This document shows positions 1 through 6,904 of a DNA stretch of 6,904 bases, in pieces. This DNA comes from a virus (lineage: Duplodnaviria > Heunggongvirae > Uroviricota > Caudoviricetes). The notes under the pieces were generated by a model, which made no database searches, was not told the origin of the DNA, and saw only the letters and a list, made by a program, of their open reading frames with translations. Where the stretch lies: the IMG/VR virus record IMGVR_UViG_2648501165_000007, positions 1-6,904 of that record. The stretch is one strand, 5' to 3'. Within the stretch, counting starts at the first letter, position 1. Every line of letters starts with the position of its first letter. Both the position numbers and the translations under genes were made by a program.

Positions 1-9
1 CTAATTCAC

Positions 10-402
10 TCACAGTACCGCCTCCTGAAAGTTTCCCCGATAGAACGCCAGCACACGCTGCATAACTTCGCTCTGGCGGCACTCACGACAAATTATGTTC
101 TGCCGTCTGTTGTAACGACGTATTTCTCCGTCAGGTAACTTTCGAATCAGTGTCGGGTCAGCAGCCTTCTCCGGTGTCTTACGCCATACGCGATACGCCT
201 GCTCTGATGGAAATACCCCGCAACCAGAGAGCCAGACATCACCACTGGCCGCAAGCGCACCAGATAAACAACGAATAGCGGTCTTACTGACACCCGTTTT
301 ATCTGCCAGTTGTCGAAAAGTTTCTCGTCCGCTCAGGCGCACGAATTCCACAATGCGCGCCTTCACTTCTTCCCGCTCTTCTGGTGTAAATACTTTTGCC
401 AT
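10..402 (-). CDS. hypothetical prophage protein, 130 aa from the ATG at 402 (the track ORF extends to a TTG at 417); possible HTH segment
   Basis: ORF track 10..417. The ATG at 400-402 is preceded on the minus strand by GGAGG about 5 nt upstream. The TTG at 415-417 abuts the stop of the upstream gene with no RBS. Segment FRQLADKTGVSKTAIRCL looks helix-turn-helix-like. No family recognised. Confidence 0.5.
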   Translation of the reverse strand: MAKVFTPEEREEVKARIVEFVRLSGRETFRQLADKTGVSKTAIRCLSGALAASGDVWLSGCGVFPSEQAYRVWRKTPEKAADPTLIRKLPDGEIRRYNRRQNIICRECRQSEVMQRVLAFYRGNFQEAVL

Positions 403-417
403 AAGCGCCTCCGGCAA

Positions 418-1188
418 TCACTTTTCCGATACAACACGGCGGGAAGAATCAGTAATCTGTCGAACAATATCCCGGTGCTTGTTCAGCTCCCGCAGCGCGG
501 CGCAGACTCGCTCCCACTTCTGGACATCACTTTTCGCCCTGCGCAGCGCCAGGTTTGCCCTGCGCAGGGACGGAAAAATCAGCTCATCTGCTTGCGTTTC
601 GGTAAACGATAGCAACGGCTGCACAATGTCCGCCACAGTTTCTGTTTTAATTTCTTCCTGTGTTGCGGCTTCCCGGACTGGTAACGCAGCACCTGCTGGC
701 TGAGGAAAGGCCTTACCATCATTTTTCGTTACCGGCGCGGCTTTCGGATCTGCTGGTAAATTACCCCCCGACATGCAGTAACGAAATTTACCGTTCTGAT
801 TAACGCGTGCCAGCCGCCCCGTTGCGGTTACCACCGCCAGCGTGGAAGCAACCTTGCGAGTACTGACGCCAACCTTCCCCGCCAGTTCCTCACACGTTTT
901 AGCACCATCCTGACCGATAAACTCAACCATCATGTCTGCGGTAACTTTTGGAGCGACCTCTTCGGTTACCACATCCGGCGCTTCAGGTTGTAGTGCCTGC
1001 CCTTCGGTTACCCCAGCTTCACCTTCGACAGCCAGAAACCAGGTGTGACCCGTTTTATCAACAACGCCATTTTTTTTGAGTTCCCACAGTTCGTTAAGAA
1101 CTTCTTCACGGCTGATATCAAGCCGCGCCGCCAGTTCAACAGAATTGGCTTTTCCCATCGCTTTCAGTGCATGCAATACAGTTTCCAT
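418..1188 (-). CDS. hypothetical prophage protein, 256 aa, acidic, with winged-helix-like segments
   Basis: Long ORF with ATG at 1186-1188 and a GAGGT-type RBS about 9 nt upstream on the minus strand. Same orientation as the replication genes and tightly packed (DnaC-like stop at 1214). HTH-like stretches NSVELAARLDISREEVLNEL and KTCEELAGKVGVSTRKVAS. Resembles a recurrent enterobacterial prophage protein from memory only. Confidence 0.6.
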   Translation of the reverse strand: METVLHALKAMGKANSVELAARLDISREEVLNELWELKKNGVVDKTGHTWFLAVEGEAGVTEGQALQPEAPDVVTEEVAPKVTADMMVEFIGQDGAKTCEELAGKVGVSTRKVASTLAVVTATGRLARVNQNGKFRYCMSGGNLPADPKAAPVTKNDGKAFPQPAGAALPVREAATQEEIKTETVADIVQPLLSFTETQADELIFPSLRRANLALRRAKSDVQKWERVCAALRELNKHRDIVRQITDSSRRVVSEK

Positions 1189-1213
1189 CGAAAATTTACC
1201 TCGTCAAAAATTC

Positions 1214-1954
1214 TCACATACCCTGACGTCCAACGTTTGACCGCCAGCTCTCCCAGTTAAAATTCACCCAACGACCACCATTCATGGTCATACGGTCCAT
1301 CACCCGATCTCCGAGGAGTGTGCTCATCGCTGCGTGATTCAGGTTCGTCAGCATTCCGACACTACGCATCGAAGCCGTTCTGCGGTCGACTATCTGGTTC
1401 AGCGTGACCTGCTCGTTGCGCGTATCCCGCTGCATGCCAATTTCATCAAGGACCAGAAGGTCAACTCCACAAAGCTCCTGTAAAAATTTTTCCCCGGACT
1501 GGCCGTTGTCGTAGCCGTCATGCAACACGCTCATGACATCGGACACGGTGACGATAATCACGCTTCTCCCCTTCGCCATCAGCCGATTGCCAATCGCTGC
1601 TGCCAGGTGATTTTTACCGGTACCAGGTTTACCGCTGAACACGAAGTTTGTACATCCGGTCATCAATTCATCGGCAATGGATTTCGCCTGGCTCAGAGCA
1701 TGGCGCTGACCGTCGTTCTGCACCTGGTAATTCGCAAACGAGCATTTACGGTGCAACGGCTGGATGCCTGAACGATTCAGAATTTTTTCCACCCGCAACT
1801 GGCGATTCAGGCGGTTGATCTCCTCGCTACGTTTCTGGCCTTCAGCAAGTTGCCACTCGCGCCACTCCGCTACCGTTCTGAATGGGGCGGTTACATGTGG
1901 CGGGGTCAGTCGGCGGATGCGTTCCAGAACGCCGCCTGTCGCAATATTTTTCNN
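1214..1954 (-). CDS. ydaV: DnaC-like replicative helicase loader (AAA+), YdaV-like
   Basis: Walker A FSGKPGTGKNHLAAAIG and Walker B LLVLDEIG in the track ORF 1214..1798. Manual upstream translation in the same frame gives KNIATGGVLERIRRLTPPHVTAPFRTVAEWREWQLAEGQKRSEEINRLNRQL, which aligns with the remembered YdaV N-terminus. The inferred ATG (plus 1952-1954, c+NN) lies inside the N run, so the start is inferred rather than seen. Confidence 0.8.
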   Translation of the reverse strand, partial: XKNIATGGVLERIRRLTPPHVTAPFRTVAEWREWQLAEGQKRSEEINRLNRQLRVEKILNRSGIQPLHRKCSFANYQVQNDGQRHALSQAKSIADELMTGCTNFVFSGKPGTGKNHLAAAIGNRLMAKGRSVIIVTVSDVMSVLHDGYDNGQSGEKFLQELCGVDLLVLDEIGMQRDTRNEQVTLNQIVDRRTASMRSVGMLTNLNHAAMSTLLGDRVMDRMTMNGGRWVNFNWESWRSNVGRQGM

Positions 1955-2721
1955 NNNNNNNNGTCCGGCAACGAGACAGTGTTAACCTGTCGGAGCAACG
2001 TCTCAGGCCGAACACCTTTCGGCGCGAACAGGCCCTGGTATTCATTGGCGATGCTGTGTCGAATCACCTGCTCAGGTGAAAAACCCTGCTGGCGGAATTT
2101 TTCCAGCTCCCGTATCGCCCCGTTAGCGCCCTGCTCCGTTCGAATCGGTTTACGCAATGCCTGCCTGAACTTAACCCACTCATGCCAGAGTGTTTCCGGC
2201 AACCAGTCAGGCAGCTCGATAGCCTCCGGCTCGAATTTTTTAGACGCTCGTTTTTGGCGAGGGGGATTTAGGGGGAGATCAGTATTTATATCTTCCTCTT
2301 CCTCTTCCTCTGGTAACGCTTTTTGATCCGTTTGTGTAACGCTGCCAGCGTTACCTTTTCGTTTCAGTTCGCGTATTTTTGTAACTCGCTCGTTTGTAAC
2401 CGCCCGTTTTTTAGAGCTTTTTCCGTTATGACGTTCAAAGTTAGGTAGAGAAAGCCCACCGTCATTTTCGACCAGCCATCCAACCTGAATTAACGCATCA
2501 GCAAAACCAGCCATAAAAGTGATGCGGTCTATTGCACTTTTTGTAACGCCGCGAGCGTTACAATCTGCATTACCGTCTATCATTTGTTGATCCGCCCATG
2601 CCCAGAAGCGAATAACCTTCCCTAATGCGGCATCTGGATCAATATTCAGAATCTCAGCAAGCCTGAATATTTCCGGCTTATCCGGCGTAATAACCTCGAG
2701 CTTTATCCAGTTTGAAGCCAT
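1951..2721 (-). CDS. ydaU: replication initiation / replisome organiser protein, YdaU-like (functional analogue of lambda O)
   Basis: ATG at 2719-2721 with AAGGTG RBS. N-terminal region MASNWIKLEVITPDKPEIFRLAEI...GVTKSAIDRITFMAGFADALIQVGWL is typical of phage replisome-organiser N domains. Poly-Glu linker (EEEEEE, 2293-2310) separates N- and C-terminal parts. The 3' end is masked by the N run 1953-1962; the stop was placed at 1951-1953 (Nga on minus), assuming an ATGA overlap with the ydaV-like start. The track ORF reads through to 1906 in an unreliable frame. Confidence 0.65.
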
Positions 2722-2754
2722 TTGTTTTCACCTTGTAACGCTCGCAGCGTTACA
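2312..2754. repeat. dispersed palindromic sites TGTAACGC-N3-5-GCGTTACA (three full copies plus half-sites) within and upstream of the ydaU-like gene
   Basis: Full inverted repeats at 2335-2354 (TGTAACGCT gcc AGCGTTAC), 2542-2562 (TGTAACGC cgcga GCGTTACA) and 2734-2754 (TGTAACGCT cgc AGCGTTACA, perfect 9-3-9). Half-sites GGTAACGCT 2312-2320, TGTAAC 2380-2385, TGTAACCGC 2395-2403. Confidence 0.7.
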
Positions 2755-2798
2755 TTTAACTGATACCGAACAAAACAATCCGGCACGATCAATTTCAA

Positions 2799-3221
2799 TC
2801 AATGCACTACGACAGAATCGCCGGGCGACCCACCACCGCTGAAATGTGCTTTCCGGTAAACGGCCTGGACTGCATCATCATGCGCATCAATTGCCGTACT
2901 CAACGCTTCCTGCGCCGCCAGTAATGCACGGCGTTCCAGGGTATCGAAGATACGGAGTCGGTGACGCAGCTCGCGCGGAAGAATTGCCAGAACCGCAGGG
3001 ATCAGTTTCTGAATTTTTTCCCTTTGCGCTTTCGTTTCACCTTTCAACCAACGGTGATAGATATTCTGCTGATTGTTCCAGTCCTTGCCTGGTACAAGGG
3101 GCAATTCGCCGCCCCCCTGGCGCAGATATTCTTCAGTAATTGCGTTAGCGACCCACGCCTGCCCTTTTTCGGCTGCCAGGGCCAACAACACTGATTCGAT
3201 ATGCTCATGCCTGATTTTCAT
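2799..3221 (-). CDS. ydaT: YdaT-like protein (reported functional equivalent of CII-type regulators in Rac-like prophages)
   Basis: 140-aa ORF starting MKIRHEHIESVLLALAAEKGQAWVANAITEEYLRQGGGELPLVPGKDW, matching the remembered YdaT sequence and length. Its ATG (3219-3221) overlaps the stop of the Cro-like gene in an ATGA arrangement, indicating translational coupling. Confidence 0.65.
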   Translation of the reverse strand: MKIRHEHIESVLLALAAEKGQAWVANAITEEYLRQGGGELPLVPGKDWNNQQNIYHRWLKGETKAQREKIQKLIPAVLAILPRELRHRLRIFDTLERRALLAAQEALSTAIDAHDDAVQAVYRKAHFSGGGSPGDSVVVH

Positions 3222-3460
3222 GAATCAACCGCTCCTATGCTGTTTTCGCTATGCTTACCGTCTGGGGGGAATACATCGTCAAGTCCACAATGAGCGCCAA
3301 GCCGATTAAGGGTAGAAACAATTTTTCTGCACTCCTCTAGCCCAGGGGTACGAAAATTTGCTTCGTAATTTGCCAGTCGGCTTTGTATCCACCCTAACTG
3401 AACAGCGAGTTGTCTTTGAGACAACCCAAGCTGTTTTCGATATGTTGAAATTTTGTTCAT
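3218..3460 (-). CDS. Cro-like HTH (XRE-family) regulator, 80 aa
   Basis: HTH segment LSQRQLAVQLGWIQSRLANYEA. ATG at 3458-3460 with GGAGG RBS about 7 nt upstream on the minus strand. Divergent from the repressor gene and first gene of the replication-side operon. Confidence 0.7.
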   Translation of the reverse strand: MNKISTYRKQLGLSQRQLAVQLGWIQSRLANYEANFRTPGLEECRKIVSTLNRLGAHCGLDDVFPPDGKHSENSIGAVDS

Positions 3461-3556
3461 TGAAAACCTCCGATGACAATTTTAAACACACCTTGTGTTA
3501 TATGGTCAAGCTGTTTTGTGTTTTATGTAAATCACGATTCGTGATACAAGGATGCA
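3461..3556. promoter_or_regulatory. divergent promoter/operator region between the Cro-like and repressor genes
   Basis: Candidate minus-strand promoter: -35 TTGACC (plus 3504-3509), 17-bp spacer, -10 TTTAAA (plus 3481-3486). Inverted repeat AACACA cct TGTGTT (3485-3499) overlaps its -10. Second perfect palindrome ATCACGA t TCGTGAT at 3531-3545, 12 bp upstream of the repressor ATG. No convincing plus-strand -10/-35 found by eye. Confidence 0.55.
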
Positions 3557-3976
3557 ATGGAAAAAGAAAACGAAAAAATTGCCGCTAGTAGGCTCAATGA
3601 CAAAATTGCAATGCGTCTTAAAGAGCGCAGGCAGAAGCTTGGTTTATCTCAAGGAAAACTTGCTGAAATCTGCGGATGGACGCAATCGCGTATAGGTAAC
3701 TATGAGGCGGGCAGCAGAAATGTTGGAGTGCATGACGCTGTCGTATTGGGAAAGGCACTTGGCATATCTCCTCCTGAGCTCCTCTTTGGAGAACAGGAAT
3801 CTTCTGAATTGTGGTTAAATGAATCCCAACGAAAACTTCTTGAGTTGTTTAACCAGCTACCGGGCTCAGAACAACAACGAATGATTGAGTTATTTGAAGT
3901 CCGGCTAAAAGAAATCGATGAGTATGTAGAAAAATATTTGAGAGGCAGGCTTAAAGATAATCCCCCACCGGAGTAA
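3557..3976 (+). CDS. DicA-like HTH repressor (CI-type immunity repressor lacking a peptidase domain), 139 aa
   Basis: HTH LSQGKLAEICGWTQSRIGNYEAG near the N-terminus, followed by LLFGEQ and KLLELFNQLPGSEQQ, matching the remembered DicA architecture (ELLELFNALPESEQ). AAGGA RBS 4 nt before the ATG. Divergent from the Cro-like gene. Confidence 0.75.
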   Translation: MEKENEKIAASRLNDKIAMRLKERRQKLGLSQGKLAEICGWTQSRIGNYEAGSRNVGVHDAVVLGKALGISPPELLFGEQESSELWLNESQRKLLELFNQLPGSEQQRMIELFEVRLKEIDEYVEKYLRGRLKDNPPPE

Positions 3977-4005
3977 TGATCTTGCTATCACAGTAATATG
4001 CCAAT

Positions 4006-4031
4006 CAGCCCGCTATCAGCGGGCTTTTTTG
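4006..4031 (+). terminator. intrinsic terminator after the repressor gene
   Basis: Stem AGCCCGCT (4007-4014) / AGCGGGCT (4018-4025) with short loop ATC, followed by a T tract to 4030; lies 30 nt after the repressor stop. Confidence 0.7.
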
Positions 4032-4072
4032 TACCATCATCATATGACACCCACCACAAAACACATTTCGTG

Positions 4073-4101
4073 TTGACACAAGAAAACGCATTGTGTTTAA
4101 T
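4073..4101 (+). promoter_or_regulatory. sigma70-type promoter TTGACA-17-TTTAAT with an inverted repeat in the spacer (operator-controlled promoter of the leftward operon)
   Basis: TTGACA at 4073-4078, 17-bp spacer, TTTAAT at 4096-4101. Inverted repeat ACACAA (4076-4081) / TTGTGT (4091-4096) sits in the spacer. A further AACAC attt c GTGTT repeat lies at about 4059-4073. Half-sites resemble the ACACA/TGTGT repeat in the 3461-3556 region. Confidence 0.6.
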
Positions 4102-4281
4102 AAGCATATCCAAACAACGCCCCACCAGAGAACGGCAGGACAATACCTCGAGTTATCCAGCCACTGAACAGGGCTAAGTAGCCAGCCTGAGGCATACGAA
4201 CATGACGGCAGTTGTTGATTGATACAAAGCGCAGTAGATAAAACGTTCCGCCACCCGGCGTTAAGGGGAAATGAGGTCAAC

Positions 4282-4434
4282 ATGGATACTATCGATCTTG
4301 GCAACAACGAATCTCTGGTATGTGGCGTGTTTCCCAATCAGGACGGCACATTCACCGCCATGACGTATACCAAAAGCAAAACGTTTAAAACCGAAGCTGG
4401 CGCACGTCGCTGGCTTGCCAGAAATACTTGCTAA
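4282..4434 (+). CDS. ydaF: small protein, YdaF/YdfA-like, 50 aa
   Basis: ATG at 4282 with GAGG 5 nt upstream. Translation MDTIDLGNNESLVCGVFPNQDGTFTAMTYTKSKTFKTEAGARRWLARNTC matches the remembered Rac YdaF / Qin YdfA small proteins in length and sequence. The track ORF 4219..4434 starts further upstream without an RBS. Confidence 0.55.
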   Translation: MDTIDLGNNESLVCGVFPNQDGTFTAMTYTKSKTFKTEAGARRWLARNTC

Positions 4435-4656
4435 TCCATTATTTGGATTAATTCAATATTCTCGCTGTAGGGGTATAGCAGAAACCACCAAAGCCCGGAG
4501 GTGGTGAAATAAAANNNNNNNNNNATTTAAAACTGAAACAGGCGCACGTCGCTGGCTTGCCAAAAATACCAGCTAATCCATTTATTGGATTAATTCAATA
4601 TTCTCGCTGTAGAGGTATAGCCGAGGCCACCAAAGCCCGGAGGTGGTGAAATAAAA
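4384..4656 (+). repeat. tandem direct duplication, two units offset by 142 bp and roughly 90 percent identical
   Basis: 4384-4514 aligns with 4526-4656 at a constant offset of 142, with scattered substitutions. Unit 1 covers the last 17 codons of the ydaF-like gene plus about 80 bp downstream. Each unit carries a hairpin TAATCCA (5 nt) TGGATTA directly after the stop codon. The junction is masked by N 4515-4524. Confidence 0.8.
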
Positions 4657-4759
4657 CCGGGCATAACACGAAGGCGCATTTCCGGTATCCATAAAGAGTC
4701 GGTCTTGTCTGTCAAATTTAAATGGTGGGAGTGCGCCTCCGGTTGTGAATAACAACACT

Positions 4760-4821
4760 GCTGTGTGTAGTCTTGGCGGCATCAGTTTTTTCTTGAAGTT
4801 CGACTGATGTCCGCCCTTTTT
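4760..4821 (+). ncRNA. dicF: DicF-like small RNA (cell-division-inhibiting sRNA family of Qin-type prophages)
   Basis: TTGGCGGCATCAGTTTT and GACTGATGTCCGCCCTTTTT resemble the remembered DicF core (UUUGGCGGUAUCAGUUUU ... GACUGCUCUGCCGCCC). Hairpin GGCGGCATCAG (4775-4785) / CTGATGTCCGCC (4804-4815) followed by TTTTT (4817-4821) forms the terminator. The 5' boundary is approximate. Confidence 0.5.
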
Positions 4822-5129
4822 AAAGTGAATTTTGTGATGCNNNNNNNNNNAAGCTATTGTCCTTCGTAGCAGAGTTATGGGTGAAATATCCGGCGTTAAT
4901 TGTTAACTGGTTAACGTCACCTGGAGGCACCAGGCACCGCATCAACAAAGTTCACTTCAGTGATGAAAGGTGAGAGAAAATGTTGAATGTAGCTATTGAA
5001 AACCAGAACGGGTGGAATTATAGTGCACCTGCACCTCATAAAACGGGTGCCGGGATTTGCACCCCGATGATCACTAGAGCGCATAACCGCGCCAAAGCGG
5101 TTTTTTTATGCGTAAAGCGCAGCCACATT

Positions 5130-5215
5130 CAGATTATGGTGGGGCGTATGGGGCCGTTTTCGGGCGGGCCGGATTCTCTAGTGACCGGTAGTGCAAACCC
5201 TGTACGTCTCACCAC
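5130..5215 (+). ncRNA. candidate c4-like antisense regulatory RNA embedded in the leader of the Rha gene
   Basis: Element a' CTCTAGTGA (5176-5184) and b' GTGCAAA (5191-5197) are complementary to two upstream/downstream pairs: b1 TTTGCAC 5056-5062 and a1 TCACTAGAG 5071-5079; b2 TTTGCAC 5224-5230 and a2 TCACTAGAG 5256-5264. a' is flanked by CCGG/CCGG, which could close a loop. Boundaries are guessed. Confidence 0.4.
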
Positions 5216-5273
5216 CCATGAGATTTGCACCTCCGGTGGTGAGTTTACCAACTTATCACTAGAGGCTGCCATC

Positions 5274-5828
5274 ATGGCTACTATCCCTACCCTTTCTCAC
5301 CCTGACGTAACCATCGAAAATGGTCGTGCTGTCACTACGTCTGTTGCAGTTGCAGAGTTTTTCCGCAAGCTGCATAAAAACGTCATTCAAAAAATTGAAG
5401 CTCTGGAATGTTCCTCAGAATTCACTGAGCTTAATTTTAAGCCAAGTGAATACACCGACTCAACCGGGCGCAAACTCCCTATGTACCAAATCACCAAAAA
5501 CGGCTTCGTTTTCCTGGTGATGGGCTTCACTGGCAAAAAAGCCGCTGCATTCAAAGAGGCCTACATTGCTGAGTTCGACCGCATGGAAGCAGAACTACGC
5601 CAGAATAATACCACTCCCACAAACAAAATCATTCCGGGCGATGGGCGCACTCTGGTTGTTCGCTTCGACAAATTCGGCAACGTCGAATTCACTGAAACCG
5701 TTCCTGATGACGCTCTCGTCTGTACCCTAGACACTTTCCGCCTTTATCTGGAGAAACAGGGCTGGACTCTTGTAAACCGAAGCGCAATTAAAAACATGAC
5801 CGTCGAGCAGTTGCTGAGTATTAAATAG
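5274..5828 (+). CDS. Rha-family phage regulatory protein (antirepressor-like), 184 aa
   Basis: ATG at 5274 with GAGG 9 nt upstream. Motif RAVTTSVAVAEFFRKLHKNVIQKIEAL ... YQITKNGFVFLVMGFTGKKAAAFKEAYIAEFDRME is the Rha-domain signature. The track ORF 4980..5828 carries a 98-codon N-terminal extension over a structured repeat-rich leader, judged non-coding. Confidence 0.7.
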   Translation: MATIPTLSHPDVTIENGRAVTTSVAVAEFFRKLHKNVIQKIEALECSSEFTELNFKPSEYTDSTGRKLPMYQITKNGFVFLVMGFTGKKAAAFKEAYIAEFDRMEAELRQNNTTPTNKIIPGDGRTLVVRFDKFGNVEFTETVPDDALVCTLDTFRLYLEKQGWTLVNRSAIKNMTVEQLLSIK

Positions 5829-5874
5829 TTTTCTGGAATTTTCTTAATACGACAAATTTATTAAGGAGATAATT

Positions 5875-6096
5875 ATGATTGCTCATCACTTCGGAACCGA
5901 TGAAATACCACGCCAGTGCGTGACTCCTGGCGATTATGTTCTTCATGAAGGCCGGACATATATTGCCTCGGCAAACAATATTAAAAAGCGAAAACTTTAT
6001 ATTCGTAGCCTAACTACAAAAACATGCATTACTGACTGCATGATTAAAGTCTTCCTCGGTCGTGATGGTTTACCTGTAAAGGCGGAGTCATGGTGA
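5875..6096 (+). CDS. kilR: KilR-like small protein, 73 aa (Rac prophage cell-division inhibitor family)
   Basis: Strong RBS AAGGAG 6 nt before the ATG at 5875. Length 73 aa and position immediately upstream of the ydaE/racC/recE-like genes match the Rac order kilR-ydaE-racC-recE. Sequence identity is from memory only. Confidence 0.6.
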
Positions 6097-6266
6097 CGAC
6101 TAAGAAAATAAAATGTGCTTACCACCTTTGCAAAAAAGACGTTGAAGAAAGCAAAACTATAGAAAGAATGCTTCACTTCATGCACGGGACTTTATCAAAA
6201 GACGAACCGAGAAAATATTGCAGTGAAGCTTGTGCCGAAAAAGACCAGATGGCACACGAACTTTAA
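6090..6266 (+). CDS. ydaE: YdaE-like small Cys4 zinc-binding protein, 58 aa (not in the ORF track)
   Basis: Manual translation from ATG 6090: [58 protein letters not shown], stop TAA 6264-6266. Cys pattern C-x4-C ... C-x3-C. The start overlaps the kilR-like stop (ATGGTGA), indicating translational coupling. GTG 6093 is an alternative start. Confidence 0.55.
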
Positions 6267-6340
6267 TTAATTGACTATTCGAAACTGAATTTATGCCAGA
6301 AATGGCAGGGATTCGCTCAACCTTAATTCAGGAGAAAAAC

Positions 6341-6616
6341 ATGATTACCAATTATGAAACCACTGTTGTAACTACCGATGACATTGTTCACGAGGTGAAT
6401 CTGGAAGGAAAGCGCATTGGCTACGTAATTAAAACAAAAAATAAAGAAACCCCATTCACTGTGGTTGATATCGATGGTCCATCAGGCAACGTAAAAACAC
6501 TTGATGAAGGTGTCACAAAAATGTGCCTGGTTCACATCGGAAAGAATCTGCCCGCAGAAAAAAAAGCCGGATTTCTGGCAACTCTGATTGCAATGAAATT
6601 AAACGGTGAAATCTGA
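6341..6616 (+). CDS. racC: RacC-like protein, 91 aa
   Basis: ATG at 6341 with AGGAG 6 nt upstream. Length (91 aa) and position directly upstream of recE match Rac racC; the sequence itself is not recognised. The track ORF 6293..6616 starts at an upstream ATG without an RBS. Confidence 0.5.
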   Translation: MITNYETTVVTTDDIVHEVNLEGKRIGYVIKTKNKETPFTVVDIDGPSGNVKTLDEGVTKMCLVHIGKNLPAEKKAGFLATLIAMKLNGEI

Positions 6617-6717
6617 AAGAAATAGCCTGCGTATGGCGCAGGCTATGAACAGTGTGTATCCGGCAAGATCATTCACTGAACAAAACGAATTTTAATCTGA
6701 GTTGAGGTTAAAAAACA

Positions 6718-6904
6718 ATGAGCACAAAACCCCTCTTCCTTTTACGGAAAGCGAAAAAATCATCCGGTGAGCCTGACGTCGTCCTGTGGGCAAGCGACGA
6801 TTTTGAATCAACCTGTGCCACTCTGGACTACCTGATCGTTAAGTCAGGTAAAAAACTGAGCAACTATTTTAAAGCTGTTGCCACGAATTTTCCTGTCGTT
6901 AATG
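6718..6904 (+). CDS. recE: exodeoxyribonuclease VIII (RecE), N-terminal 62 codons, truncated by the window end
   Basis: Translation [62 protein letters not shown] matches the remembered N-terminus of E. coli RecE with a few substitutions. The ORF is open to the end of the window. Confidence 0.7.

Follow-up and report, generated by a model that had tools for sequence, protein, structure and literature searches.

The C4 family of phage antisense RNAs was described in 1990 and generalised in 2010 by Weinberg et al., who defined the C4 and c4-a1b1 motifs (RF01695 and RF03163) with a covariation-backed structure and a spread across Proteobacteria and prophages; the IsrK and STnc1160 RNAs were dissected in 2016. 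In the literature accessible to search, IsrK and c4 are listed as separate small RNAs (sRNAs). Here we analyse a stretch of 6,904 nucleotides (nt) from a virus of the Caudoviricetes (IMG/VR record IMGVR_UViG_2648501165_000007, positions 1 to 6,904), which we call the window. A previous reading of its letters alone, referred to below as the sequence-only reading, had noticed short complementary motifs in the leader of a rha gene (5054–5276) and had taken them for a c4-type antisense RNA module. These complementary motifs belong to a known and very common phage RNA switch, which combines a C4 antisense RNA with an IsrK-type decoy in front of a Rha-type gene. By its Rfam signature, the locus classes as the P4/Gifsy sub-type of the C4 cassette, which includes an IsrK sRNA.

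The record of phage P1 annotates an upstream pair of sites, a1 (TTGACAG) and b1 (GTTAGTG(C)), a 77-nt C4 RNA, and a downstream pair, a2 and b2, the latter over the GAGG Shine-Dalgarno sequence of icd. In the nomenclature of the annotated P1 genome, the 5′ site of 7 nt is called a and the 3′ site at the ribosome-binding site is called b, and C4 carries b′ in its loop and a′ in its junction. The record describes the downstream sites as targets for the repression of icd/ant translation, and the promoter of the P1 module is under a C1 operator. Citron and Schuster suggested, as relayed in the supplement to Weinberg et al. (2010), that the upstream sites compete with the downstream sites. C4 is a substrate of RNase P according to Hartmann (1995), as cited in PMC11143913.

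The Gifsy-1 system was studied by Hershko-Shalev et al. (2016; PMC4825925). The promoter PisrK was shown experimentally, the IsrK terminator is partially read through, and a species of approximately 80 nt, STnc1160, is processed from the long transcript. IsrK provided in trans raised the translation of anrP approximately 140-fold and its transcription approximately 8-fold. Compensatory mutations proved that the IsrK loop pairs with a region that is now recognisable as the C4 junction. The open reading frame (ORF) orf45 is translated, and AnrP induces the prophage. In the accessible part of the paper, the model uses the pairing of IsrK with orf45 only, without downstream sites.

We scanned P1, P4, Gifsy-1 and the window uniformly with the Rfam models. 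P1 contains matches to c4-a1b1 (51 bits) and C4 (68.8 bits) and no isrK match, and P4 contains isrK (60.8 bits) followed by C4 (74.9 bits). In P4, the CI RNA causes transcription of the replication operon to terminate prematurely. Gifsy-1 matches isrK (79.3 bits), c4-a1b1 (48.1 bits) and C4 (69 bits). Its C4 match lies over orf45/STnc1160, so that the position of STnc1160 is that at which Rfam places C4 in Gifsy-1. Downstream sites can also be recognised in Gifsy-1 (sequence L148, 34131–34085, minus strand): they are TTGGCGT and ATCACCG, the latter abutting the anrP Shine-Dalgarno sequence GGAGG. Direct sequence reading showed both to be complementary to the elements of C4/STnc1160.

In the window, the module is built from six short motifs, which are arranged as follows.

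5056–5062, + strand: upstream 7-nt target TTTGCAC (b1 of the sequence-only reading, a1 in P1 terms), in the loop of IsrK hairpin 2; complement of 5191–5197.
5071–5079, + strand: upstream 9-nt target TCACTAGAG (a1 of the sequence-only reading, b1 in P1 terms), in the single-stranded IsrK linker before the terminator; complement of 5176–5184.
5176–5184, + strand: C4 loop recognition element CTCTAGTGA (a′ of the sequence-only reading, b′ in P1 terms), inside the 12-nt loop of the hairpin GCCGG/CCGGU at 5168–5189.
5191–5197, + strand: C4 junction recognition element GTGCAAA (b′ of the sequence-only reading, a′ in P1 terms), in the single-stranded junction of the Rfam consensus.
5224–5230, + strand: downstream 7-nt target TTTGCAC (b2 of the sequence-only reading); exact complement of 5191–5197.
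5256–5264, + strand: downstream 9-nt target TCACTAGAG (a2 of the sequence-only reading), overlapping the rha Shine-Dalgarno sequence GAGG at 5262–5265.

All six motifs stand where they had been reported, and they are exact complements of their partners; no further copy of any of them was found in the 6904-nt window. The start-to-start spacing of 15 nt reported for the central element and the upstream pair is correct, and the spacing of the downstream pair is 32 nt. The downstream copy of TCACTAGAG had been said to cover the Shine-Dalgarno sequence of rha, and it indeed overlaps the GAGG, 8 nt before the ATG at 5274. The composite pattern TTTGCAC-N(5–30)-TCACTAGAG has three matches in the window, two on the + strand and one as the complement in the central element, compared to none in 200 dinucleotide-preserving shuffles. 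The architecture is the same as that of P1, as the sequence-only reading had proposed, but its labels a and b are swapped relative to P1 usage.

The motifs are embedded in a region with two structured RNAs and predicted transcription signals.

4996–5024, + strand: sigma-70 promoter TTGAAA-17-TATAGT, 10/12 matches, with a predicted transcription start near 5031.
5031–5107, + strand: IsrK-family sRNA of 77 nt; RF01394, 68.6 bits (cutoff 50), model positions 1–77 of 77.
5085–5107, + strand: intrinsic terminator of IsrK, stem 5085–5102 followed by T7 (terminator scan).
5132–5219, + strand: C4 antisense RNA; RF01695, 78.1 bits (gathering score 45), model positions 1–87 of 87.
5138–5216, + strand: predicted mature C4 of 79 nt, with ends derived from alignment to the annotated 77-nt P1 C4 RNA.
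5222–5273, + strand: local hairpin burying the Shine-Dalgarno sequence; CCUC 5230–5233 pairs with GAGG 5262–5265, and part of the 9-nt target is buried.

The scan with the Rfam C4 model, which had been suggested as a check of the c4-type interpretation, was positive, and the full-length match above the threshold, with recognition elements in the loop and the junction as in P1 c4, supports that interpretation. C4 forms a long closing stem around two hairpins, as indicated by both the fold and the compensatory changes. The minimum-energy fold agrees with the Rfam consensus (z = −3.08), and 18 of the 27 pairs of the consensus fold show compensatory changes on both sides among 30 diverse homologues; the stem of the third C4 hairpin was fixed by the search pattern and is uninformative in this respect. 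The loop of this third hairpin (GCCGG/CCGGU) is filled by the 9-nt element, and the junction, which holds the 7-nt element, is single-stranded. The ends of the predicted C4 resemble the mature P1 ends, with AU↓GGUGGGG (the arrow marks the cut) at the 5′ side and GCCACC/ACCACC at the 3′ side.

The sequence-only reading had missed that the two upstream targets are part of an IsrK-family sRNA, for which a separate promoter and terminator are predicted. This RNA is predicted to fold into two hairpins (5031–5050 and 5051–5066), a linker, and the intrinsic terminator. The promoter is the only promoter-like site in 4700–5400, and its predicted start coincides with the first base of the isrK match at 5031. 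Homology to Stx2a phages begins at 5032; a megablast comparison with named phages gave partial matches only, with approximately 79% identity, from 5032. The C4–rha transcript is predicted to arise by read-through past the IsrK terminator, by analogy with Gifsy-1. The hairpin that hides the Shine-Dalgarno sequence has an energy of −23.8 kcal/mol (z = −3.45) and is retained in the fold of the 270-nt leader. Equivalent hairpins occur in 54 homologous modules, with a median z of −2.26; in 48 of these 54, four or more of the 9 target nucleotides are paired. The 270-nt leader as a whole folds into modules (z = −4.76), and the ensemble centroid gives a long-range alternative fold.

Among homologues, differences in the loop and junction elements of C4 are matched by differences in both target pairs, whose positions are fixed. 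The analysis included 97 non-identical modules with full flanks, which represent 52 combinations of loop and junction elements (types) and were collected by searching viral contigs with the C4 core pattern, in which the loop was left free, together with loci found via Rha relatives. The search of species genomes with the Rha protein yielded 26 loci, few of them with a C4 core, and the DNA-pattern search of viruses was far more productive. Among the homologues there are 40 distinct versions of the loop element and 14 of the junction element. An exact upstream complement of the 7-nt element is present at its own locus in 87/97 modules, compared to 0.6% when the element is swapped in from another locus, and the corresponding values for the downstream complement are 95/97 and 0.7%. 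For the 9-nt element, with at most one mismatch allowed, the upstream complement was found in 67/97 (1.4% swapped) and the downstream complement in 77/97 (2.2% swapped). When G–U pairs were allowed and each type was counted once, full pairing of the 9-mer was observed upstream in 33/45 types against 9% for swapped elements, and downstream in 28/45 against 1.5%. The covariation expected by the sequence-only reading is thus present, since elements find complements at their own locus and swapped-in elements do not. The distances of the sites from the core are stereotyped (approximately −112, −97, +22/23 and +53/56 nt), and in almost every module a start codon lies 17–20 nt past the first position of the downstream 9-mer. 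Many distinct types each keep their own complements, and therefore a non-functional explanation is untenable. The transcription signals are conserved as well: a promoter-like pattern occurs upstream in 39/45 types, compared to 1/45 in a control region, and a run of at least five T separates the upstream targets from C4 in 46/52 types.

Compared with P1, the window has the same C4 logic. In both, the loop and the junction of C4 are complementary to one upstream and one downstream pair of sites in their common transcript, the 3′ site of the downstream pair overlaps a GAGG 8 nt before an ATG (GTTAGTGAGGCCGTAACTATG in P1, TCACTAGAGGCTGCCATCATG in the window), and the two C4 RNAs hardly differ in their 5′ part (AUGGUGGGGCGU). 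The parallel to the icd-ant operon drawn by the sequence-only reading holds in this respect but not in the gene order, as P1 has a small icd ORF between C4 and ant, whereas in the window rha follows directly, without an icd-like ORF. The cargo also differs, being Ant1/2 in P1 and a Rha-family protein in the window. The upstream sites of P1 score as c4-a1b1 and not as isrK, whereas the reverse is true for the window, in which an intrinsic terminator follows the upstream sites. Thus, relative to the c4-a1b1 motif of Weinberg et al., the upstream element of the window remains below the threshold and matches isrK instead, although the target sites of the upstream pair are present.

P4 shares with the window the signature of isrK and C4, and its immunity RNA originates from the leader of the operon under its control. 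An old protein ORF over the P4 RNA matches Pfam Phage_ASH, as the leader of the window does. Unlike the window, P4 has no antirepressor-type cargo directly after the downstream site. Gifsy-1 has a sigma-70 promoter, a 77-nt IsrK with a terminator, C4, and downstream sites beside the cargo Shine-Dalgarno sequence, as has the window, in which the promoter and the terminator are predicted, and the C4 closing stem and both orf45 AUGs are almost identical. Its cargo is likewise a two-domain antirepressor-like protein of approximately 185 residues. In contrast, the recognition elements are CGGTGAT and ACGCCAA in Gifsy-1, compared to CTCTAGTGA and GTGCAAA in the window. The stop codon of orf45 overlaps the anrP start (AUGA), whereas the frame of the window has no stop and runs into rha. 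AnrP belongs to ORF6N/phrog_2379 and Rha to Phage_pRha/phrog_995, with links at the family level only. The Gifsy-1 module is located downstream of Q, whereas that of the window is in the early left operon before kilR.

The cargo gene of the window is the following.

5274–5828, + strand: rha, 184 amino acids, with an N-terminal Phage_pRha domain and a C-terminal domain common to the anti-repressor family phrog_2379.

The 184-residue protein belongs to the Rha family, with scores of 108.8 bits to PF09669 (cutoff 29.9) and 114.5 bits to TIGR02681 (cutoff 45.95). Its PHROG matches are phrog_995 and the anti-repressor families 373, 63 and 2379. Residues 101–172 match phrog_2379, the family of AnrP (E = 7e-8), and the N-terminal domains of Rha and AnrP match the same region of phrog_373 and phrog_63. 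An antirepressor-like role of Rha is plausible from these domain matches. Other C4 modules contain icd-sized ORFs of 75–85 residues or Bro-N/ANT-like proteins in the cargo slot. In the viral contig L041, an ORF of 243 residues consists of a truncated rha and a second translated leader followed by a second rha.

RefSeq annotates a different gene in this place, a 'Rha family' coding sequence (CDS) of 282 amino acids, which starts at ATG 4980 and runs through both RNAs. Two parts of the leader are relevant to this annotation.

4980–5273, + strand: N-terminal 98 codons of the RefSeq CDS (the 'Ash' extension), most likely a translated RNA leader and no real coding region.
5136–5273, + strand: equivalent of Gifsy-1 orf45, with AUGs at 5136 and 5148, fused in frame to rha, without amino-acid constraint.

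The promoter and the terminator both lie inside the annotated 282-residue CDS. Pfam Phage_ASH (PF10554) matches the first 98 residues with 49.6 bits (cutoff 26), and PHROGs 995, 821, 6928, 3960 and 29966 match the translated leader; no NCBIfam model was found over the leader. Codon-position entropy was calculated from 34 Rha-class loci. It is 0.60/0.55/0.54 for codon positions 1/2/3 in the leader (5031–5273), which shows no codon periodicity or amino-acid constraint in these loci, and 0.66/0.45/1.09 in rha from 5274. The excess at the third position appears only from 5274, and therefore amino-acid selection begins at ATG 5274, the start codon that the sequence-only reading had chosen. As a protein family, Phage_ASH reaches its score threshold, but the sequences that it matches here lack the codon-position signal of protein-type evolution. 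Phage_ASH also maps to the old 'cI protein' ORF of P4, exactly where this ORF overlaps the CI/C4 RNA. The RefSeq names given to homologous leaders include 'ash family protein' and 'Icd-like'. The protein labels of RefSeq, Pfam and PHROG over the leader are probably a widespread annotation artefact. The loci concerned include 4980–5273 of the window, 8168–8584 of L150 and the homologous leaders in E. coli genomes.

The AUGs at 5136 and 5148 align with the orf45 AUGs of Gifsy-1 at +107 and +119. The AUG at −32 from the C4 core, 5136 in the window, is almost universal and is part of an AUGG conserved in the Rfam family. How the upstream frame relates to the cargo gene differs between homologues: among the 45 types that have both an AUG at −32 and an ATG 10–25 nt past the 9-nt site, the two are fused in 18, the frame stops early in 15, it overlaps the cargo out of frame in 9, and it abuts the cargo in 3. 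By analogy with Gifsy-1, the non-conserved upstream ORF starting at 5136/5148 may be read by ribosomes. Alignment with the mature P1 C4 places the RNase P cut inside AUG 5136 (AU↓GG). Such a cut would destroy the start codon of the upstream ORF, and processing of C4 and translation of this ORF would then be mutually exclusive on a given transcript.

Based on these features and on the homologous systems, a mechanism of the switch can be proposed. The present analysis shows which RNAs are involved, how they are built, that their sites co-vary, where coding constraint begins and where the cassette ends on either side, whereas the processing of C4, the repression of rha, its activation by IsrK and the role of Rha are modelled on the homologues. 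Transcription would start near 5031 from the promoter at 4996–5024, which looks constitutive, and most transcripts would end at the terminator 5085–5107, producing the 77-nt IsrK-like sRNA. Both upstream sites would be displayed by this RNA, with the 7-mer placed in a hairpin loop and the 9-mer placed in the linker. Transcripts that read through the terminator would carry C4, which RNase P is expected, from P1 homology, to excise at AU↓GG as a stable RNA of approximately 79 nt (5138–5216). The C4 loop (5176–5184) and junction (5191–5197) would then pair with the mRNA sites 5256–5264 and 5224–5230, respectively, and this pairing over the Shine-Dalgarno sequence, jointly with the local hairpin, would keep rha untranslated. 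Polarity would probably also lower the transcription of kilR downstream. IsrK, either as an sRNA or as the corresponding sequence in cis, would compete for the C4 elements, either by titrating C4 or by opening a fold in cis, and therefore an excess of IsrK would free the leader and turn rha on. Activation of rha may involve ribosomes initiating at AUG 5136/5148 and continuing in frame into the gene. The product, as a two-domain antirepressor-like protein, would act on the prophage repressor or on transcription. We consider it likely, with some reservation, that 4958–5864 of the window is a phage immunity-type C4/IsrK RNA switch cassette that works by this mechanism.

Several points weigh against this proposal. 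The rha Shine-Dalgarno sequence is already buried in the local hairpin of the predicted fold without C4, and therefore the added effect of C4 binding is questionable. When C4 was cofolded with IsrK or with the downstream leader, a heterodimer was not favoured. Because nested-structure folding cannot represent loop–loop contacts, only the local duplex energies were used, which are −13.4/−14.4 and −8.6 kcal/mol. The Rfam c4-a1b1 model (RF03163) scored 18.8 bits at 5018–5070, below its cutoff of 46.7. The swapped-locus controls of the covariation analysis remove the effect of shared ancestry only in part. The antirepressor function of Rha is predicted from the position of the gene and from remote two-domain similarity to Gifsy-1 AnrP, and a BLASTP comparison of these two proteins found essentially no similarity (E = 0.016 over 38 residues). 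In Gifsy-1, constitutive STnc1160 enhanced the toxicity of IsrK and did not blunt it (PMC4825925), a result that does not fit a simple repressor and decoy model. Finally, the coupling of orf45 to anrP in Gifsy-1 is not directly transferable to the window, because the upstream ORF is fused in frame to rha and does not end at the cargo start.

C4 could alternatively act mainly on transcription, as in P4, by pairing with sites in the nascent transcript and causing premature termination at or beyond the IsrK terminator, instead of blocking the ribosome-binding site. P4 and the window have the same Rfam signature, and the intrinsic terminator directly after the upstream sites is conserved in 46/52 types. 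In P1, translational repression reportedly also causes transcriptional polarity (Biere et al. 1992). A role in termination was raised for STnc1160 by the authors of the Gifsy-1 study (PMC4825925). Nevertheless, the 9-nt downstream site lies over the Shine-Dalgarno sequence with the geometry of P1 and at a conserved distance of 17–20 nt to the start codon, and a role in termination only is disfavoured because it would not require this geometry. The effect of IsrK in Gifsy-1 is also far larger on translation (~140-fold) than on transcription (~8-fold), as reported in that study. We regard a mainly transcriptional action as rather unlikely; the translational mechanism of the P1 type and the transcriptional mechanism of the P4 type can coexist. 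The published model of Gifsy-1 offers a structural switch in cis, in which the upstream sites pair with the C4 elements in the long transcript and hold it in an inactive fold, until IsrK in trans opens this fold and enables translation from AUG 5136/5148 into rha, while free C4 and the downstream sites have no regulatory role. Such a switch agrees with the mutational and structure-probing data from Gifsy-1 (PMC4825925), with the long-range centroid alternative to the modular minimum-energy fold of the 270-nt leader, and with the conservation of both orf45 AUGs in the window. It is difficult to reconcile with the downstream sites, whose covariation with the C4 elements is no looser than that of the upstream sites (95/97 and 77/97) and implies selection for pairing with these elements; the downstream sites of P1 are established targets of repression, and the relation between the upstream ORF and the cargo is not conserved. 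A switch operating exclusively in cis is improbable in our view.

The remaining two explanations concern the reality of the RNA switch itself. If 4980–5273 were a genuine N-terminal 'Ash' domain of a 282-residue Rha, the complementary motifs would be incidental to coding. The 98 codons are open from ATG 4980 and included in the RefSeq CDS, Phage_ASH matches them well above its cutoff (49.6 bits vs 26), several PHROG families match, and orf45 of Gifsy-1 is translated according to PMC4825925. However, the leader lacks the third-position excess that is strong in rha from 5274, a promoter and a terminator lie within the supposed CDS, and two Rfam families cover it. Its helices show compensatory changes, and its frame relation to the cargo varies among homologues. 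Moreover, it has no NCBIfam model, and Phage_ASH maps onto the P4 ORF that overlaps the CI/C4 RNA. A genuine 'Ash' domain is thus very improbable, and we rejected the 282-residue ORF as a real protein on the evidence of codon positions, promoter and terminator, Rfam matches and covariation. The motifs could also be chance repeats without function, for which only their short length speaks. The composite pattern, observed three times, occurred in 0/200 shuffles, and the two Rfam matches at the gathering level and the covariation across 52 types refute this explanation together with the shuffles, which leaves it a negligible probability.

The switch belongs to a discrete insertion in a Rac-like prophage.

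4958–5864, + strand: 907-bp cassette (promoter, IsrK, C4, targets, rha); homology to the Rac prophage of Escherichia coli K-12 (L147) extends to 4957 and resumes at 5865.

Two E. coli chromosomes match the window with 100% identity, and in them it lies within a Rac-like prophage with the gene content ydaU/V/T, two helix-turn-helix (HTH) regulators, ydaF, "Rha", kilR, ydaE and recE. The cassette replaces 8 nt, GTAAAAAT, directly 5′ of the kilR Shine-Dalgarno sequence of K-12 Rac (L147 4240–4249). A terminator on the + strand was not found between rha and kilR, and therefore kilR may be co-transcribed with rha. A racR/ydaS-like immunity region is the likely target of any antirepressor encoded by the cassette. 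The sequence-only reading had regarded the module as an immunity layer not normally described for Rac-type prophages. It is correct that K-12 Rac has no such module, as no C4 or isrK match was found there, but the module is not unusual: relatives of the leader are present in 2600/5426 complete E. coli genomes, where the median copy number is two and the maximum eleven. The exact version of the leader was found in 42 records, and 79 of the places with relatives are on plasmids. Some viral contigs contain tandem C4 modules, approximately 1.3 kb apart in L031 and approximately 650 nt apart in L076; the two modules of L031 differ in loop specificity.

The biology of the switch has been established in P1/P7, P4 and Gifsy-1, and the main value of the present analysis is practical. 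The element is an ordinary representative of a known system that is mislabelled as a protein in genome annotation. Approximately half of the complete E. coli genomes carry such modules, yet an RNA feature is absent from RefSeq at these places. Translations of the leader RNA appear to underlie Pfam Phage_ASH and several PHROG families, and a corrected annotation would set right the start codons of many prophage regulators. The uniform scan of P1, P4, Gifsy-1 and the window unites IsrK/STnc1160 and c4/a1b1 in one frame, a view that may be under-appreciated. The covariation of the site pairs across dozens of specificities provides ready-made orthogonal RNA–RNA pairs, and the variation in specificity is a handle on heteroimmunity among co-resident prophages. 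The position of the cassette directly before kilR means that it may gate a host-toxic gene.

We speculate, tentatively and with considerable doubt, that C4 switches have a detachable half, the upstream targets (a1b1), that IsrK sRNAs generally represent this half, and that they serve as dedicated sponges for the C4 encoded with them. The approximately 40 loop and 14 junction variants would then be largely orthogonal addresses for up to 11 modules per E. coli genome, which could act independently or with selective cross-talk. According to the same speculation, kilR would also be under C4/IsrK control, and the RNase P cut within the AUG (AU↓GG) would decide, for each transcript, between the repressor RNA and the translation of the cargo.

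The surroundings of the cassette contain further features. A YdaT-toxin-family gene and a divergent pair of HTH regulators are located at 2799–3221 (− strand), 3218–3460 (− strand) and 3557–3976 (+ strand); they make up the racR/ydaS-like immunity region mentioned above. The gene sieB is missing from this Rac-like prophage. A single 55-bp stretch of K-12 Rac (L147 4572–4626) aligns to two segments of the window, 4460–4514 (94.5% identity) and 4602–4656, and this short local duplication adjoins the spot of the missing sieB. Runs of exactly 10 N at 1953–1962, 4515–4524 and 4841–4850 look like masking; one of them breaks the ydaF homologue, and one lies between KilS and the cassette, in the leader region of kilR. 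A homologue of KilS, an sRNA of K-12 Rac, is located upstream of the cassette at 4725–4821 (93.9% identity) and ends in a terminator-like GC hairpin and a T run. Positions 4762–4816 give a sub-threshold match to DicF (42.8 bits vs a cutoff of 48, E = 5e-8), which places a DicF-like RNA near the FtsZ inhibitor gene kilR.

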